Shown here one piece after another: positions 1,906 to 37,625 of a DNA stretch of 64,000 nucleotides. The DNA is from Acidobacteriota bacterium. GTDB lineage: Bacteria > Acidobacteriota > UBA6911 > RPQK01 > JAJDTT01. The translations under genes were made by a program, and so were the position numbers. Within the stretch, counting starts at the first letter, position 1; each line of letters opens with the position of its first letter. The notes beneath the pieces were generated by a model. That model worked only from the letters and a program-made list of their open reading frames with translations. It was not told the origin of the DNA and did not search any database. Location of the stretch: positions 480,001-544,000 of the forward strand of contig CBDCJH010000002.1 of NCBI GenBank assembly GCA_965217775.1, in the 5' to 3' direction.

Positions 1906-3248
1906 GCCGTCTTTCCCGTGAATTCGTCGAGGAACGAGGTCCCATAGGTCCCACTCAGGAAGTCGGGATGGCGGATCACTCTCCGGTGAAAGGGCAGGGT
2001 GGTCTCGATCCCCTCGACGACGAAGGTGTCCAAGGCCCGTTTCAGTCGAGATATGGCCTCCGCCCGGTCGTTGCCGTGAGCGATGAGTTTGGCGATGAGG
2101 GAGTCGTAGTGGGGGGAAATGACGCAATCCGTATAGGCCGCGGAATCAACCCGGATCCCCGGCCCTCCCGGAGCATGGTAAGCATGGATTCGGCCGGGAG
2201 AGGGAATGAAGGTCTCGGAAGATTCGGCGTTGAGCCGGCATTCGATGCTGCTTCCTCGAAAGACCACGTCGTCCTGGGAAAAGTCCAGAGGAAGGCCTGC
2301 CGCAATCTGTATCTGCTCCTTCACGATGTCAATCCCGGTGATCATCTCGGTCACCGGATGCTCGACCTGGATCCTGGTGTTCATCTCGATGAAATAGTGG
2401 TTCCCCTGCTGGTCGAACAGAAACTCCACCGTCCCCGCGTTCTGATAGCCGATCTCCTTCATGGCGTGCACCACTTGGCTTCCCAGCTCCATTCGCCGGC
2501 CGGGGCTGAGAAACGGGCTGGGAGACTCTTCCACCAGTTTCTGATGCCGCCGCTGAATGGAGCAGTCACGCTCCCCCAGGTGGACGATGTTCCCCCGGTC
2601 GTCGGCCAGGATCTGAAACTCGATATGGCGCGGGTTCTCAAGATACCGCTCCAAATAGACTTGAGAGTTGCCGAATGCGCTTTCCGCCTCGGACTGGACC
2701 AGTGCCAAGGAGTCAAGGAAATCTTGCTCCCGGCGAATGATGCGCATCCCCTTCCCGCCGCCTCCGGCTGCCGCCTTGATGATGAGGGGGAAGCCGACCT
2801 GCCGTGCCAACGCCGAGGGATCCGGGCTCTCCCGGTCGATGGCGCCGGTTCCGGGAATGGTGGGAATTCCCAGGGCCTTGATCGTCTCCCGTGCCCGGGA
2901 CTTGTCTCCCATGAGACTGATGGCGGACGCGGAGGGGCCGATGAACCGGATGCCACAGTTGTCGCAGACCTCCGCGAAGTGGGAACTCTCGGCCAGGTAG
3001 CCGTAACCGGGGTGGATGGCGTCCACGTTGGTGATCTCGGCCGCGCTGATGATGCTGGGGATGTTCAGATAGCTGTCGTAGCTTCGGGGCGGGCCGATGC
3101 AGACGGCCTCGTCGGAGAAGCGGACGTGGAGCAGGTCCCGATCGGCCTCGGAGTAGACTGCGACCGTGCGAATGCCCAATTCCTTGCAGGCGGCGACGAC
3201 ACGCAGCGCTATCTCACCCCGGTTGGCGATGAGGACCTTTCTGAACAT
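1902..3248 (-). CDS. accC: Acetyl-CoA carboxylase biotin carboxylase subunit
   Basis: [54 protein letters not shown]. Confidence 0.97.
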
Positions 3249-3256
3249 ATTTGCTA

Positions 3257-3384
3257 GCCCGCATTTCTCATCAGGGCGCGCCCAGCGCAGTCTGTCCCCG
3301 AGAGACATTGGTATCAATTGCGTAAACGCCGAACAATAAGATCATTTCAATCATACGCATAGCGGCTTGGTGAGAAATTCGGGC
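3257..3384. mobile_element. MITE family C copy (about 128 bp)
   Basis: Terminal inverted repeats gcccgcatttctca / tgagaaattcgggc, flanked by TA on both sides. Related copies at 8703-9461 and 31110-31241. Confidence 0.8.
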
Positions 3385-3821
3385 TAGGTGCGGATCTCGA
3401 ACAGGGGCTCACCGTATTCGACGGGCTGGCCGTTTTCAACCAGGATGCGAACGATCTGGCCATCCACGTCGCTCTCGATCTGGTTGAAGATCTTCATGGC
3501 CTCGATGATGCAGAGAGTGTCCCCTTCGCGGATGGTGGATCCGACTTGGACGAAGGTGTCTGCATCGGGTTTGGGTGAAGAGTAGTAGGTCCCCACCATG
3601 GGTGCGGTGAAGGCGTGAAGGTTCTCCGGCGCGGCTATGGGCTCGACCGGGGCCGTTTCTACGCCAGGGGCCTCCTGCACCGCCGGAGTTGCGGGTTCGG
3701 GCGGCGGGGCGACACCGCCGCGATGGATCCGGAGTCGGACTCCGTCCCGTTCCAACTCGAACTCCGCCACATCGAACTCGTCGATGAGTTTGAGTAAGGA
3801 CCGGATCTCCCTGGTGTTCAT
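3384..3821 (-). CDS. accB: Biotin carboxyl carrier protein
   Basis: APMVGTYY and the EAMK biotinylation motif; directly upstream of accC. Confidence 0.96.
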   Translation of the reverse strand: MNTREIRSLLKLIDEFDVAEFELERDGVRLRIHRGGVAPPPEPATPAVQEAPGVETAPVEPIAAPENLHAFTAPMVGTYYSSPKPDADTFVQVGSTIREGDTLCIIEAMKIFNQIESDVDGQIVRILVENGQPVEYGEPLFEIRT

Positions 3822-3863
3822 CGTTCTTCCTGCACCGGCTTCTCCCCGCGCGGTGTAAGTTTA

Positions 3864-4025
3864 GCAGTCCGTGGTGAAAGTCTCACGCAGCACCGAGACC
3901 GGGGCTGCGCCCGCCGGACAAGGCGCTCTGAGGGAGCATACCGGGAGGATGTGACCGAGGAGCAACGCAGTCCGCGCACGATGCGGACCCGGTAGAATGC
4001 CGTGACGACTGTTGCCACGGGCTGT
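3864..4025. mobile_element. MITE family A copy (first of a tandem pair)
   Basis: TIRs cagtccgtggtgaaagtc / gactgttgccacgggctg with TA flanks; the TA at 4026-4027 is shared with the next copy. Confidence 0.82.
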
Positions 4026-4027
4026 TA

Positions 4028-4187
4028 GCAGTCCGTGGTGAAAGTCCCGCGAGCACCGAGACCGTTCCTGCGCCCGCCGGACAAGGCGCGATTCGGGAGC
4101 ATACCGGGAGTATGTGATCGAATCGTAACGCAGTCCGCCGGGATGCAGGGACGGTCGGATGCCGTGGCGACTTTTGCCACGGGCTGT
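4028..4187. mobile_element. MITE family A copy (second of a tandem pair)
   Basis: Same TIRs and internal sequence (gcccgccggacaaggcgc...gcataccgggag...cgcagtccg) as 3864-4025. Confidence 0.82.
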
Positions 4188-4304
4188 TAGTCTCCACGGC
4201 CCCACGGGAACAAGTCGGAACCGTCCGTTGGGTCAGCCGATCGACTGCCCGTGGAAGTCGTTATCGCGCCTCTGTCGGCCGGAGAACGTCTTCTCCCTCA
4301 CTCT

Positions 4305-5375
4305 TCACCGGCCCGGATCGGAAAGCAGCCGGTACCCGGTGCCGGTCACGACAACCACATCCTCGATCCGGACGCCCATCCGTTCCGGAAGATAGATTCC
4401 CGGTTCCACGGTGAAAACCATTCCGGGCTTGAGGGGCCGCGGTCGACTCGGGGAGATCCGGGGCAGTTCGTGGACTTCCAAACCCAGTCCGTGGCCGACG
4501 CTGTGTTGAAAGTGGTCACCATGTCCGTAGCGCTCGATCACGCGGCGAGCCGCCCGGTCCACGTCGGAGGTCAGGATACCGGGACGGATGGAATCCAGAG
4601 CCGCGTGCTGGGCTTCCGAGACCATGTCGAAGATCTCGGGCTTCTTGGCCTCGCGGGGAAGATGGACCCGGGTGAGATCGCTCAGATACCCTCCGAAGCG
4701 GATTCCGAAATCGATCAAGAGGATTTCCTGCTCTCCCCAGACTCGGCCGGTAGCCACGCCGTGGGGCAGGGAGGATCGGGGTCCGCTGGCCACGATGGTG
4801 TCGAAGGCGACGCCTTCACCCCCGGCCTTGCGCATCTCCATTTCCAGGATGCCCGCCATCCGGACCTCGGCCATGCCGGGGGAGATCTGGTCGAGAAAGC
4901 CGGAAAATGCGCTCTGCGCCAGCTCGAAGGCCCGGGTCAGCGCCTCGATTTCGCTGGGTTCCTTGATGATTCGCAGGGTTTCGATCAGGTCGTGTTCGGG
5001 TACCCACTCGATGGCTGCGGACCAGGTCTGGATTCGCAGCCAGAGATCGCAACTGACACGAGTCGCCTCCAGCCCCAGTCGTTTCCGAGCGCTCTTGCCG
5101 GGAAAGCGGTCGTTCAACAGCTCTTCCAAGGCCTCCTCGAATGAACCCCCAATCAGCTGCGGAGTGCAGTTCACGGCCGTGGCCCGGGCTTGTTCCAGAT
5201 AGCGGGAGTCCACCAGGAGAATGGTCTCGTCTCCCAGGCAGCAGGCCAATCCCGCCGAACCGGTGAAGTTGAAGAGGTAGGTCAGATGGGGTCCGTGCTG
5301 GACCAGAAATCCGTCCAGGCCACGGTCCTCCAGCTCGGTCAGAAAGCGGCCATAGCGGCCCCGAAAGTCGTGCAT
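4305..5375 (-). CDS. M24 family Xaa-Pro aminopeptidase
   Basis: DSRY, PHG, IDFG...SDLTR, HSVGHGLGLEVHE, TVEPGIY and GVRIED metal-binding motifs. Confidence 0.93.
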   Translation of the reverse strand: MHDFRGRYGRFLTELEDRGLDGFLVQHGPHLTYLFNFTGSAGLACCLGDETILLVDSRYLEQARATAVNCTPQLIGGSFEEALEELLNDRFPGKSARKRLGLEATRVSCDLWLRIQTWSAAIEWVPEHDLIETLRIIKEPSEIEALTRAFELAQSAFSGFLDQISPGMAEVRMAGILEMEMRKAGGEGVAFDTIVASGPRSSLPHGVATGRVWGEQEILLIDFGIRFGGYLSDLTRVHLPREAKKPEIFDMVSEAQHAALDSIRPGILTSDVDRAARRVIERYGHGDHFQHSVGHGLGLEVHELPRISPSRPRPLKPGMVFTVEPGIYLPERMGVRIEDVVVVTGTGYRLLSDPGR

Positions 5376-5387
5376 CCCCGGACTCTA

Positions 5388-5711
5388 CCAGCCTGTGGCA
5401 AATGTGGTCACGGCATTCGACCGGGTCTGCATCCCGGCGGACTGCGTCGCGCCTCGGTCACATCCTCCCGGTATGCCCCCTCAGAGCGCCTTGTCCGGCG
5501 GGCGCAGCTCCGGTCTCAGTGCCAGGAGCCTGCGCCGCAGAAATTGGTCTACTGCGAAAGCGGTAGAATCGGTCCGGATTTCCCCGATTTCTCGGCGAAT
5601 AAAACAACTATGCACCTCAAAATCGAGAAAATCCGGCCTTGATTCCCCACTTTCTCGCTACGATCATTTCTACCGCGGAGACTCCTACGCGGGACTTTCA
5701 CCACGGGCTGT
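5388..5711. mobile_element. MITE family A copy interrupted by a family B MITE
   Basis: Family A sequence runs 5388-5522 and resumes at 5688 (cgcgggactttcaccacgggctg); TA flanks. Confidence 0.8.
5525..5685. mobile_element. MITE family B copy nested inside a MITE A
   Basis: TIRs ggagcctgcg / cggagactcc; reverse complement of the 11449-11609 copy. Confidence 0.82.
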
Positions 5712-6991
5712 TACCTGATTCGGGGCGTGATGAAGAAGATAATTTCCCGGGTTTCCCGGCTTTGGGAGTCCCTCCGAAAGAGCCGGCCCAGGACCGGGAT
5801 TCGGTTCAGACCCGGAACCTTTTGCTCCAGCGTCCGGTCGATTTCCAGGAGGATCCCTCCGATCACGGCCGTACCTTCATGCGGGATCAGAACTACGGTC
5901 TGGGATTCGCTCGTGAGGATGGTGGGAATGCCTTGAACTGTCCGGCTGAAATCGGGGACGTTGTTTTCCACCTTGATCTTCAGCAGAATCGTCTTCTCGC
6001 TCGTGATCTGTGGCGTCACCAGAAGCCGCAGGGCGGCGGTCTCGAAACGGACCGTGGTCGTGAAGTCGTGCTCGACTGGAATCGGAATTCGGGCTCCCTG
6101 GGTGATGATGGCCTCGACCTTGTTCAGGGCGGTGACCCGGGGTTTGGAAAGGATGCGAACTTCTCCGTCCGATTCGGCTGCGGTGAGAAGCGCATCCAGC
6201 CGAATCGTGTCCAGTACCGGGGTGGCCGCGATGCCGGGGGAAGGCAATCCCTGCCGGGACGGGGAGCTCATGCGCACGGAACCTCCGCCTCGTTGGCTGG
6301 TTCCGCCGAGCAGCAGGTCAAGCTGGAGACCCAGGTTCCGGGCGAAGGTGGTGGTGGCCTCGATGATTCTGGCCTCGATCTCGACTTGACGCCCTGCAAC
6401 GTCCAGCCGGTCCAGAAGGCGCTCGATCTCCAAGGCTCGAGCCGGGATGTCGGTTATCAGCACGGTGTTGGTCCTGGTGTCCACGTCCAAGCGGCCCTTC
6501 TCCCCCAGTTGGTTCTTCAGGGTCTTGGCCACCTCCTCGGCGGAGGCGTAGTTCAGGGACCGGGCCACGGTAGTCGGTGCCTGACTCTCACGTTCCTCTT
6601 CCAGCAGCTTCCGATCCCGTTCCTGCTCTGCCCGGAGAGTCTCTTGACGAGAAATCCGAATCAGGCTGTCCTGTGCCGTCTGTTCCAGGGAATGGCTCTT
6701 GAGGACCATCTCCACCACCTGGTCCAAGGCCACTCGCTCCACGCGTAGTGTCACGCTTCCCGACACGTCGGAATCGATCACCAGATTGAGGTCGCTCAAC
6801 TCCGCGACCGTGCGAAAGAAATCCACCAGGGAGGCGTCGACCAGGCTCATGGAAACCGTTTGCCGGAGCGGCTCGGGGACCTCTGGGACTTCGGGTCCCG
6901 AACCTTTCGAGGGAGTGGCTGCGACCAGCACCCATAAGAGAGGAATCCATCTGCACCGGAGTCGCGGAACGATTGACATGTTCTCACTCAC
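5711..6991 (-). CDS. pilQ: Type IV pilus secretin, short form (no AMIN domains apparent)
   Basis: N0-like segment LNLVIDSDVSGSVTL, N3-like segment DTRTNTVLITD, and secretin core QVEIEARIIE...KVPGL..IPVLGRLFR...EIIFFITPRI. Confidence 0.88.
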   Translation of the reverse strand: MSENMSIVPRLRCRWIPLLWVLVAATPSKGSGPEVPEVPEPLRQTVSMSLVDASLVDFFRTVAELSDLNLVIDSDVSGSVTLRVERVALDQVVEMVLKSHSLEQTAQDSLIRISRQETLRAEQERDRKLLEEERESQAPTTVARSLNYASAEEVAKTLKNQLGEKGRLDVDTRTNTVLITDIPARALEIERLLDRLDVAGRQVEIEARIIEATTTFARNLGLQLDLLLGGTSQRGGGSVRMSSPSRQGLPSPGIAATPVLDTIRLDALLTAAESDGEVRILSKPRVTALNKVEAIITQGARIPIPVEHDFTTTVRFETAALRLLVTPQITSEKTILLKIKVENNVPDFSRTVQGIPTILTSESQTVVLIPHEGTAVIGGILLEIDRTLEQKVPGLNRIPVLGRLFRRDSQSRETREIIFFITPRIR

Positions 6992-7994: not shown

Positions 7995-8513
7995 TCAATG
8001 CCGCGTACGGGCAGTGACGGTAAAGCGGACGGTGTTCCCGACTTGTTCGAGGCCGCGAAGTTCCACCTGGGAAAACCCCGAGTCCGAAATCAGACGTTGC
8101 AGCAGAGTCCCCGCGACGGAGGGGGTAGCCGCAGTTCCCTCGAGGGTCAGAGTTTCCTCCTCCCAAACCAGACGATGCAGGGATACTTCCTCCCGGGACG
8201 GGAACCGGTCCATGAGCCGGTTCCACAACGAAAGAGGGGAAGCCTGATGGATCTTGAGTTCCCGGACACGGTTGCGGCACTGGATCAGGATTTCGACCGC
8301 CTCTTCCCAGCGCCGGACGCTCTCCAGAACCGCTTCCAGCCTCCCTCTGCGGTCAGAGAACGTCGCGAGTCTGGCTCGGCCCGAGTCTGTCCGGGAGTCT
8401 AGCGTCTGGTGCCAGACGGCGGTTGCCACGAGGACGGAGCATGCGGCCGCGAGGACCAGCAGGTCGCGTCTCGGCGCCGCCGCAATCGACGATCTGATGT
8501 GGATCCCCTTCAT
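7995..8513 (-). CDS. pilN: PilN-like pilus assembly protein
   Basis: TM segment, coiled coil and LTLEGTA...FSQVEL C-terminal domain. Start at MKGIH (8513) is inferred. Confidence 0.68.
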   Translation of the reverse strand: MKGIHIRSSIAAAPRRDLLVLAAACSVLVATAVWHQTLDSRTDSGRARLATFSDRRGRLEAVLESVRRWEEAVEILIQCRNRVRELKIHQASPLSLWNRLMDRFPSREEVSLHRLVWEEETLTLEGTAATPSVAGTLLQRLISDSGFSQVELRGLEQVGNTVRFTVTARTRH

Positions 8514-8625
8514 CTTCAATGTCCTCAACGCGCGAACCGCTTGGAACGCGAACCCAAGATGAGGAGTGAGGAGCACATCCACCGGGCGGCGCCCGGAATA
8601 ATCCCGGAAGGAGAAGGATAGGAGA

Positions 8626-8652
8626 GGCGGTTTCCAACCGCCGAACTCCGGA
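8626..8652. repeat. REP-like palindrome GGCGGTTTCCAACCGCC
   Basis: The 27-mer ggcggtttccaaccgccgaactccgga also occurs at 48243-48269. Confidence 0.6.
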
Positions 8653-8702
8653 GGAACCATAGAAATAAGACTGGAACGGCCGAAAGAGGGAGTGGGCGAC
8701 TA

Positions 8703-9461
8703 ACCCGCATTTCTCGTGCGCCGTGGAGTGGATAGGAGGGAGAGAGTGGCAACACGGGAAGCCCCGCCGGTGACGTGGCACGCGTCAACCGGGAATCCGC
8801 GAGGACCAGCCTGGGCCGTCGGGGTGGCGGAGAGGCCCGTAGTACCGGAGAAGCCGGGTAACGCCGGTGGAGGGAAGGGGCCTCAGGTGAGGACGGGTGA
8901 GGGAAAGTGCGAAGGACTACGGGAGTGGCCTGGCCTGGAACCCCGGTTTGAGTTCGGAAGCGCTGGAACCACCGCATGCGAAAGCGAAGGGGAACGACCG
9001 TGGGACCGCGCGGGAGCGGGGGACTGCGGGCGGCAGCGGCAAGGCGAGGACCGGCTTGCCGCCGGGATCGGCAGCGGTCGGGGAGCAGAGGGAGAGGTGC
9101 CACTCTCGAGGTGCGGGCGGCGGAAGCCGTTGCGCCATTCCCGCCGCTGACGAATCGACCCGTGTGCGAGCGGCATGGTCCCACTGGAGAGCCCGCTGCG
9201 GGGAAACCGCACGGCGGGTTCGGAGAGCGGGGAGAGGAAACGTGGCCACGGTGGAGATTGAGGCACCGGCACGATGGCGAAAGCCGCCGGCAACAGCGAC
9301 TCCCTCCGACCTACCGCCGTCGCGCCTCTCCTCGACTCTACACCAGCGAGCGCGCGCGAGCGCGCAGTCTGTCCCGGAGAAACCTTGGAAAATTCCGCGT
9401 AAATGCTCAAAAACAGATTATTTTTCATCATACGCGTAGCGACCTGGTGAGAACTTCGGGC
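8703..9461. mobile_element. MITE family C copy interrupted by a group II intron
   Basis: Removing 8716-9341 restores cccgcatttctc|accag...tgagaacttcgggc, which matches 3257-3384 and the reverse complement of 31110-31241. Confidence 0.85.
8716..9341 (+). mobile_element. ORF-less group II intron with vestigial domain I (626 nt)
   Basis: 5' GTGCG. DII stem gcccc/ggggt. DIII gaggccc...gtagtaccggagaagccgggtaacgccggtggagggaa...gggcctc. DV 9189-9221 with AGC triad and AC bulge. DVI with bulged A9335 and 3' end CGACTCTAC. Exact exon junction. Confidence 0.9.
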
Positions 9462-9492
9462 TAAGGGTCGCCCCTCGTCCGAAGATGAAAGA

Positions 9493-9517
9493 GGGCGCCC
9501 GCACGGGGCGCCCCAAC
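9493..9517. repeat. REP-like palindrome (GGGCRCCC...GGGGYGCCCC family)
   Basis: gggcgcccgcacggggcgccccaac; related to 14593-14617 and a half copy at 19945-19956. Confidence 0.55.
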
Positions 9518-9586
9518 AGGTTCCCACCAAGCGTAGGCGCGTCCCGCAATCATTCGACATCCGGCGCATGAGAACAGACGGCAACC

Positions 9587-9616
9587 TTGACAAGGGACGG
9601 GTCCGTTCGGTAGATT
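9587..9616 (+). promoter_or_regulatory. Sigma70-type promoter for rplM-rpsI-rpsB
   Basis: TTGACA-18 nt-TAGATT, about 40 nt upstream of rplM. Confidence 0.6.
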
Positions 9617-9653
9617 TCCAGACTCTTGGACTCTGAGGGCGTAGTGTAACGAA

Positions 9654-10094
9654 ATGAAGAATTCGAGTAAGACGATTCTTCCAAGGCTTGACGAAATCGA
9701 CAGGAAGTGGTTCGTCGTGGACGCCAGCGATCAGGTTCTGGGTCGCTTGGCAACTCGATTGGCCACCGTCCTCATGGGCAAGGACCGACCCCATTACACT
9801 GATTTTCTCGATACTGGCGCATTCGTGATCGTCGTCAATGCCGACAAGGTGCGTCTGACTGGGAAGAAGTGGTCCCAGAAGGTCTATTATTCCCACAGCC
9901 GCTACCCGGGAGGGCTGAAAGAGATAACGGCCGAGAATCTGCTCCGCCGGTATCCGGATCGTCTGGTACGCTTGGCGGTTCGAGGTATGCTGCCGAAGAA
10001 CAAGTTGGGCAAGAGGATGATCCGGAAACTCAAGATCTATGCCGGCGCCGACCATCCGCATCAAGCTCAGAAGCCGGAGCCACTGGCCCTGTAA
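9654..10094 (+). CDS. rplM: 50S ribosomal protein L13
   Basis: WFVVDA..QVLGRLA, HSRYPGGLK, RGMLPKNKLG, HPHQAQKP. Confidence 0.98.
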   Translation: MKNSSKTILPRLDEIDRKWFVVDASDQVLGRLATRLATVLMGKDRPHYTDFLDTGAFVIVVNADKVRLTGKKWSQKVYYSHSRYPGGLKEITAENLLRRYPDRLVRLAVRGMLPKNKLGKRMIRKLKIYAGADHPHQAQKPEPLAL

Positions 10095-31079: not shown

Positions 31080-31109
31080 GACCGTGCCTTCCCGATGCGG
31101 AGCGGTCTA

Positions 31110-31241
31110 CCCCGCATTTCTCACCAGGTCGCTACGCGTATGATGAAAAATAATCTTTTTTTGAGTATTTACGCAGAATTTGCCAAGGTTTCTCCGGGAC
31201 AGACTGCGCTGGGCGCGTGCCCCCTGGTGAGAAATGCGGGC
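31110..31241. mobile_element. MITE family C copy (uninterrupted)
   Basis: TIRs cccgcatttctcaccag / ctggtgagaaatgcggg with TA flanks. Confidence 0.85.

Positions 31242-35584: not shown

Positions 35585-37625
<2,041 letters not shown>

Follow-up and report, generated by a model that had tools for sequence, protein, structure and literature searches.

The element at positions 8716-9341 of the window (the whole 64,000-nt stretch of DNA analysed here, G000:C2:480001-544000) is best read, with a probability of about 0.85, as the inactive relic of a group II intron, in which a one-off internal deletion removed most of domain I (DI) from a copy that was already non-autonomous and had entered, by retrohoming, a MITE upstream of rplM at its terminal inverted repeat. 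The first-pass annotation of this DNA had described a group II intron that lacks the RT and almost the whole of DI but keeps the core of DII, DIII, DV and DVI, and Rfam, the alignment to an RT-encoding intron of genome G006 and a consensus fold all agree with that description. Each position that it named, namely GTGCG, the DI stem enclosing 27 nt, DV, A9335, the 3' AC and HAKAK, is correct in the sequence. Its further suggestion, a class of non-autonomous mini-introns, fares badly, since the junction left by the deletion is unique, EBS1 and EBS2 lie in the deleted part, and the closest ORF-less relatives keep DI; the same junction, together with the full-DI sister copies and an insertion site matched by the EBS, favours the simpler alternative that it had also named, a deletion. 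The element very probably belongs to a known kind, the dead intron relics, rather than to a new class of mini-introns.

Insertion site and anatomy of the intron copy

The intron lies in a spacer of ~1.1 kb between pilN and rplM. On one side of this spacer is a minus-strand pilus-assembly operon with pilQ/P/O/N-like ORFs, the last of which ends near 8514-8660, and on the other are the plus-strand genes rplM-rpsI-rpsB-tsf-pyrH, starting at 9654. The two flanks stand no more than 184 nt apart in all eight same-genus genomes, as against 1022 nt in the window, indicating that ~8559-9580 is a lineage-specific insertion. None of these eight genomes has an intron match in the pilN-rplM spacer, where the site is empty, and the window from 9581 onward is kept in them. 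The features of the locus are the following:

8700-8703 (+): target-site duplication CTAA, left copy, matching the CTAA at 9461-9464
8704-8715 (+): outer 12 nt of the left terminal inverted repeat of the MITE (R), CCCGCATTTCTC, which form the 5' exon with IBS2 (CCGCAU) and IBS1 (UUUCUC); joined to ACCAG in 12 of the 41 R copies and complementary to the EBS2/EBS1 loops
8716-9341 (+): 626-nt copy of an ORF-less group II intron, deleted internally in DI (termini, Rfam, empty R sites, G006 alignment)
8721-8757 (+): DI stub, a basal stem CCGTG (8721-8725) / CACGG (8753-8757) of 5 bp that encloses 27 nt (G006 alignment, consensus fold)
8761-8825 (+): DII, every pair present (consensus fold of 12 relatives mapped to the window)
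8832-8884 (+): DIII (consensus fold of the 12 relatives)
8885-9186 (+): DIV remnant without ORF, diverged; the same ORF-less DIV is in the G002 copy (92% identity)
8975-8990 (+): leftover of the IEP N-terminus, HAKAK(E), with CATGCGAAAGCGAAG at 8975-8989; homologous to ...RKTLHAKAKEAPGF... of the G006 IEP
9035-9111 (+): 77-nt DIV segment missing from copy 2, a sister copy in the same genome (comparison of the two)
9189-9221 (+): DV with AGC triad and AC bulge, GAGCC...AC...GGUUC (Rfam; both DV helices show compensatory changes among relatives)
9224-9339 (+): extended DVI, ~116 nt, with bulged A9335 (Rfam; covariation in 9 aligned copies)
9342-9460 (+): remainder of R, serving as 3' exon; its right inverted repeat is 9443-9460 (41 blastn rows, inverted repeats)
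9461-9464 (+): target-site duplication CTAA, right copy, directly after the right inverted repeat
9587-9616 (+): sigma-70-like promoter match TTGACA-18-TAGATT, a consensus match only, upstream of rplM (9654) and downstream of the intron and the MITE

R, which gives 41 blastn rows in the genome, is a short, non-coding MITE of about 131-144 nt, whose ends are 18-nt terminal inverted repeats (CCCGCATTTCTCACCAGG and CCTGGTGAGAAATGCGGG). Of the 12 copies listed, nine have these repeats together with 4-bp duplications, and the duplications of other R copies are CTAG, TTAG and GTAG. Twelve of the 41 rows run uninterrupted from ...GCATTTCTC into ACCAG..., exactly where the window has 626 nt; 15 others belong to a longer variant of ~249 nt, two, those of the window and copy 2, have the intron in front of them, and the remainder consists of sequence variants and partial alignments. 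The intron is inserted precisely between nucleotides 12 and 13 of the left inverted repeat of R and, since the empty R copies are contiguous at this point, its ends are fixed independently of any intron feature. The window holds further R copies at 31108-31229 (-) and 3285-3386 (+). The position of the promoter match hints, if weakly, that rplM is transcribed without the intron.

The intron begins with GTGCG (8716-8720), ends with AC (9340-9341) and contains no ORF. Rfam RF00029 (DV+DVI) gives 9187-9341 a score of 38.3 bits (E 1e-5), a little short of its gathering score of 40, because DVI carries an insertion of ~100 nt; the RT-encoding relative in G006 scores similarly low (35.2 bits), and the sub-threshold score is therefore a trait of the family. 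The intron is thus visible to Rfam only in E-value mode and not at gathering thresholds, and no group-II-D1D4 model matches in the window, so that the Infernal check proposed at the outset bore fruit for DV and DVI and came out empty for DI to DIV. The sole Rfam match over its gathering score in the window is a TPP riboswitch at 37519-37625 (-), with 58.9 bits. Domain VI is usually a few tens of nucleotides long. Here the extension is kept with compensatory changes in nine aligned copies from eight genomes, including L061 2554-2671, as in GGGGAGAGG/CCUCUCC versus GGCGACUGG/CCAGUCG; a literature search on the intron class and the extended DVI returned nothing specific. Within the DIV remnant, clear alignment to the G006 intron is confined to the IEP N-terminal stretch HAKAKE (8975-8990), which agrees with the decayed IEP N-terminus first read there. 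Folded without constraints by RNAfold, the 626 nt had an MFE structure (z -2.1) that departed from the canonical six-domain layout, and the family consensus fold, computed with RNAalifold from 12 relatives, was used instead.

Extent and uniqueness of the domain I deletion

The deletion was measured against the RT-encoding intron of G006, a genome of the same genus (L061 677-2673, 1997 nt), which is the full-length relative that the first-pass annotation had recommended seeking. Window positions 8728-8883 align to positions 304-459 of that intron at 94% identity and 9187-9341 to positions 1843-1997 at 88%, giving 88-94% identity over 311 nt, and the first 12 nt of the G006 intron are also kept. 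The window copy lacks positions 13-303, that is, 291 of the ~328 nt of DI (~89%; DI spans ~6-333), as well as the ORF, and the two sides of the deletion meet between 8727 and 8728, where GTGCGCCGTGGA abuts GTGGATAGG. The consensus predicts 121 pairs in DI-DIII, of which the window copy retains 40 and has lost 81; in DI it retains none but the five of the basal stem. The retained stretch 8728-8752 is the leftover 3' strand of DI, 17 of its 25 nt being the 3' halves of pairs with deleted 5' partners (counted by hand on the structure line). With such orphaned helix strands inside it, the stub, at first described as tidily closed, is a by-product of internal deletion rather than a domain cut out cleanly. 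In the relatives with full DI, RF02003 (group-II-D1D4-4) scores 91.8 bits (G006) and 85.7 bits (G002), and the parent family appears to be a bacterial group II family of the Rfam D1D4-4 type.

The junction itself has one match in its own genome at up to four substitutions. Exact-pattern scans of two public collections, one of genome contigs and one of metagenome contigs, gave no exact match, although diverged copies could be missed by such scans. Among 60 related genomes searched, 26 had matches to the family, and in none of these did a match run through query positions 1-13, the best starting at position 13 or later. Several copies with the same stub at different sites had been named by the first-pass annotation as what would show mobility; one copy in the genome, and none in the 60 related genomes, was found. 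Reading of the two sequences reveals no direct repeat at the DI breakpoints. A microhomology-mediated deletion between two GTGGA pentamers was considered and rejected: the junction retains both in tandem (GTGGA-GTGGA), and simple repeat slippage therefore does not explain it.

Across 12 aligned introns, each from a different genome, two loops of DI covary with the 5' exons. The EBS1/exon pairs are UGAGAAA-UUUCUCA, AGUAUUU-AAAUACU, CACAA-UUGUG, UGAAU-AUUCA and CCUA-UAGG, and the EBS2/exon pairs are AUGCGG-CCGCAU, GGAC-GUCC and GGUC-GACC. The EBS of the same-genus subfamily are complementary to the inverted repeat of R (CCGCAU-UUCUC); in the full-DI members, the EBS2 loop AUGCGG and the EBS1 loop GAGAAA are complementary to the 5' exon of the window, and the full-length introns in G001 and G007 stand behind similar ...GCCCGCATTTCT.. 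motifs. By these pairings, the intron family homes into the inverted repeat of R, and its EBS1 and EBS2 are fitted to the end of a MITE. Both EBS1 and EBS2 fall within the segment deleted from the window copy, which sits in the cognate site of recognition elements that are now gone. With the EBS-bearing DI missing, the RNA cannot pair with its exons and therefore should neither splice nor move; the copy may have persisted because it lies in a non-coding stretch ahead of the likely rplM promoter, which has no need of splicing. In a sister genus, G009, G011 and G012 (L049, L050 and L052) carry full-DI ORF-less introns of the same family, with at least nine near-identical matches per genome, and their EBS1/EBS2 are retuned to another target (..GTCCGCTTTTAGG before the insertion point).

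Relatives, helper protein and competing explanations

A near-complete sister of the window copy, copy 2, is present in the same genome (C2:3538081-3542387, minus strand) and is 98-99% identical to it. Copy 2 has the same 5' exon, followed by GTGCGCCGTGGAAAGG..., and retains the full DI and the same ORF-less DIV. Its DI is split by an insertion of ~3.5 kb with three tyrosine-recombinase domains in a row, which is recombinase-in-trio-like; a 77-nt stretch of DIV (window 9035-9111) that lay between the two copies of a 10-nt repeat is missing as well, and the upper helix of DV contains a mismatch. The recombinase-trio element (Phage_integrase x3) occupies about 2555-6092 (+) of L039 (G000:C2:3536000-3545000). 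The host of copy 2 is another R copy, of a different R subtype and with a GTAG duplication. Movement of MITE and intron as one unit is disfavoured, as the two intron-bearing R copies differ in subtype and in duplication (CTAA versus GTAG), which favours separate intron insertions into R for the window copy and copy 2. A further copy in the sister species G002 has an ORF-less DIV that is 92% identical and includes the 77 nt, and a complete DI, and is 3'-truncated before DV. As copy 2 and the G002 copy keep DI, the ORF-less lineage was once inserted at several sites with full DI, and the deletion is private to the window copy. The other pieces of the family in the genome are all fragments, with 5' pieces of 49, ~237 and ~520 nt and 3' pieces of 81-131 nt, and with copy 2 disrupted as well, the family seems to be in general decay there. 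A hairpin-rich repeat (GCAGCCCGTGGCAAAAGTCGCCACGG...) is inserted in domain III of one intron fragment (L041, G000:C2:3328000-3334000, at 3342-3511 (-)), and the same repeat also adjoins other R copies (L041 1-60, L040 2210-2262).

One full-length copy in G006, the RT-encoding intron described above (L061 = G006:C1:5840800-5844200), stands upstream of a 23S rRNA gene (2837 onward), at a distance of ~160 nt. Its IEP has 463 aa with RVT_1 and GIIM and no endonuclease domain, and scores 316 bits against TIGR04416 (cut-off 300). A tblastn search with the family IEP found no cognate RT in the genome of the window, the best match being the RT of another intron family at 32% identity, followed by two weaker RTs. 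GIIM and RVT_1 scans of the same genome likewise gave no ORF of this intron family; the GIIM (PF08388) scan returned no match at all despite 11 RT-encoding introns of the other family, for which it is insensitive, and was not used alone.

On the preferred reading, R would have transposed into the pilN-rplM spacer, and an ORF-less intron with full DI would then have retrohomed, by reverse splicing, into its cognate site in the inverted repeat of R, CCCGCAUUUCUC followed by ACCAG, with the help of an IEP acting in trans and since lost from the genome. A single deletion would afterwards have removed 291 nt of DI, either following integration or during cDNA synthesis through an RT template jump, and with them EBS1, EBS2 and the greater part of the DV-docking scaffold. 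Against insertion followed by deletion stands the fact that no pre-deletion allele was found, and we infer the order of events. A lone copy and a full-length intron at the same site in relatives had been named in advance as the signs of a one-off deletion; the lone copy was found, and the site in the relatives is the empty one described above. That the deletion happened during retrohoming itself, RT jumping across the structured DI and leaving the same dead copy, is possible though doubtful. The intron termini and exon junctions are perfect and an internal, 5'-proximal segment is missing, as such a jump would produce, and the DI breakpoints have no direct repeat, unlike the 77-nt deletion of copy 2; but nothing separates an RT jump from a later genomic deletion, and there is no intermediate. 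An origin of the junction in the assembly is hardly credible. The genome contains several related intron pieces and many repeats, between which a mis-join might arise, but contigs from the runs of two studies (one perhaps the source sample) bridge 8500-8759 with 0 and 1 mismatches, and the unique left flank continues straight into the junction. The empty-site form is present too, in runs X1 and X6, where 8558 is joined to 9581 with the same 15 letters as in G007.

Two points weigh against a dead relic: nothing in DII, DIII, DV or DVI is obviously disabling, in contrast to the DV mismatch of copy 2, and a metatranscriptome contains abundant RNA contigs of the intron family. In that sponge metatranscriptome (X7), the intron body 8730-9341 is covered at depths of hundreds, and the unique flanks 8500-8581 and 9525-9700 (including rplM) have essentially no cover. 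No X7 contig crosses the DI-less junction, a contig-level result that cannot show absence, strand or RNA ends, and the contig over 8730-8879 runs upstream into full-DI sequence. These contig-level data suggest that the abundant intron RNA comes from a full-DI relative, and from the abundance of such contigs some family members in related populations are evidently transcribed. The ligated exon joint, CATTTCTC followed by ACCAGCG (8715 to 9342), is not listed in four runs, which at contig level cannot prove its absence.

A functional non-autonomous mini-intron, splicing or moving with DI supplied in trans by genomic fragments and RT likewise in trans, is very unlikely, even though its catalytic core of DII, DIII, DV and DVI is intact, its genome also contains fragments with DI and without DV (e.g., C2:3331425-3331944), and tripartite trans-splicing introns are known in organelles (PMC4424553). 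The copy is single with a unique junction, its genome has no cognate RT, orphan helix strands remain inside the stub, and the DI donors are damaged, one having a mutated 5' end and an internal MITE and the other being split by the 3.5-kb element. Moreover, the exons are the two halves of an intergenic MITE, so that nothing, transcription-linked selection included, would be expected to favour splicing. A mini-intron class, if true, would call into question that bacterial introns cannot do without DI in cis, but the evidence does not support it. It is barely credible that the window copy forms the working half of a fragmented bacterial intron, its DII-DVI core acting with DI RNA from a DI-bearing, DV-less fragment; if it did, the trans-assembling core would be a bacterial counterpart of organellar tripartite trans-splicing.

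Comparison with known systems and the second intron family

The majority of bacterial group II copies are truncated or inactivated, often among other mobile DNAs, according to the review by Zimmerly and Semper (2015, PMC4424553), and the window copy resembles them as a probably non-functional remnant that lies outside housekeeping genes and amid mobile DNA. Unlike 5' or 3' truncations, its loss is internal (DI and ORF), and the termini and the DII/DIII/DV/DVI core are kept. In that review, bacterial ORF-less introns are also described as rare and normally found alongside related IEP-encoding introns (PMC4424553). The parent lineage of the window copy is like such trans-served introns in being ORF-less, and it keeps an IEP N-terminal remnant. 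It occupies two sites in its own genome and one in the sister species, and its relatives are multi-copy in the genus g2 genomes (G009, G011 and G012). Unlike the trans-served introns, its own genome is without a related IEP, and the window copy is also without DI. A dead relic matters little in itself; the family nevertheless offers a worked example of bacterial group II decay, through ORF loss, ORF-less spread, random internal deletions and invasion by other elements.

RmInt1 has an IS element as its target. The present family is like introns of the RmInt1 type (PMC4615759) in these traits, that its IEP lacks an endonuclease domain and its homing site is inside a mobile element; unlike them, its target is the terminal inverted repeat of a MITE of ~131 nt. 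Euglena group III introns and organellar trans-spliced introns are, like the window copy, strongly reduced or split group II derivatives, and the known ones depend on trans factors (PMC4424553). Those introns, however, reside in essential genes, exist in many copies and do splice; the window copy has neither many copies nor essential exons, and no spliced joint of it is listed at contig level. Group III introns are described there as keeping DI and DVI motifs without DV, which is the opposite of the pattern seen here.

The genome also harbours a second, unrelated group II family (Rfam D1D4-6) with 11 RT-encoding copies at ~98.5% identity and ORFs of up to 526 aa; ten of the 11 copies are ~1.94 kb long, e.g., L026 (5165859-5167801). 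At least four ORF-less derivatives of ~660 nt accompany them, two being adjacent at one locus (loci C2:4405406-4407280, 3223499-3224155 and 1903822-1904599). Members of this family are inserted just after hairpin repeats of the GGCGAC-TTTCTTG-TCGCC type, and this position, together with the D1D4-6 match, indicates an IIC-like family, for which the GGCGGTTTCCAACCGCC-type hairpin repeat appears to be the target structure. One such short hairpin repeat lies at window 8620-8653, and the type is scattered over more than 100 sites. It also forms tandem arrays with 52-nt and 104-nt spacing, and further occurrences are at G000:C2:940408-940696 and 4661511-4662065.
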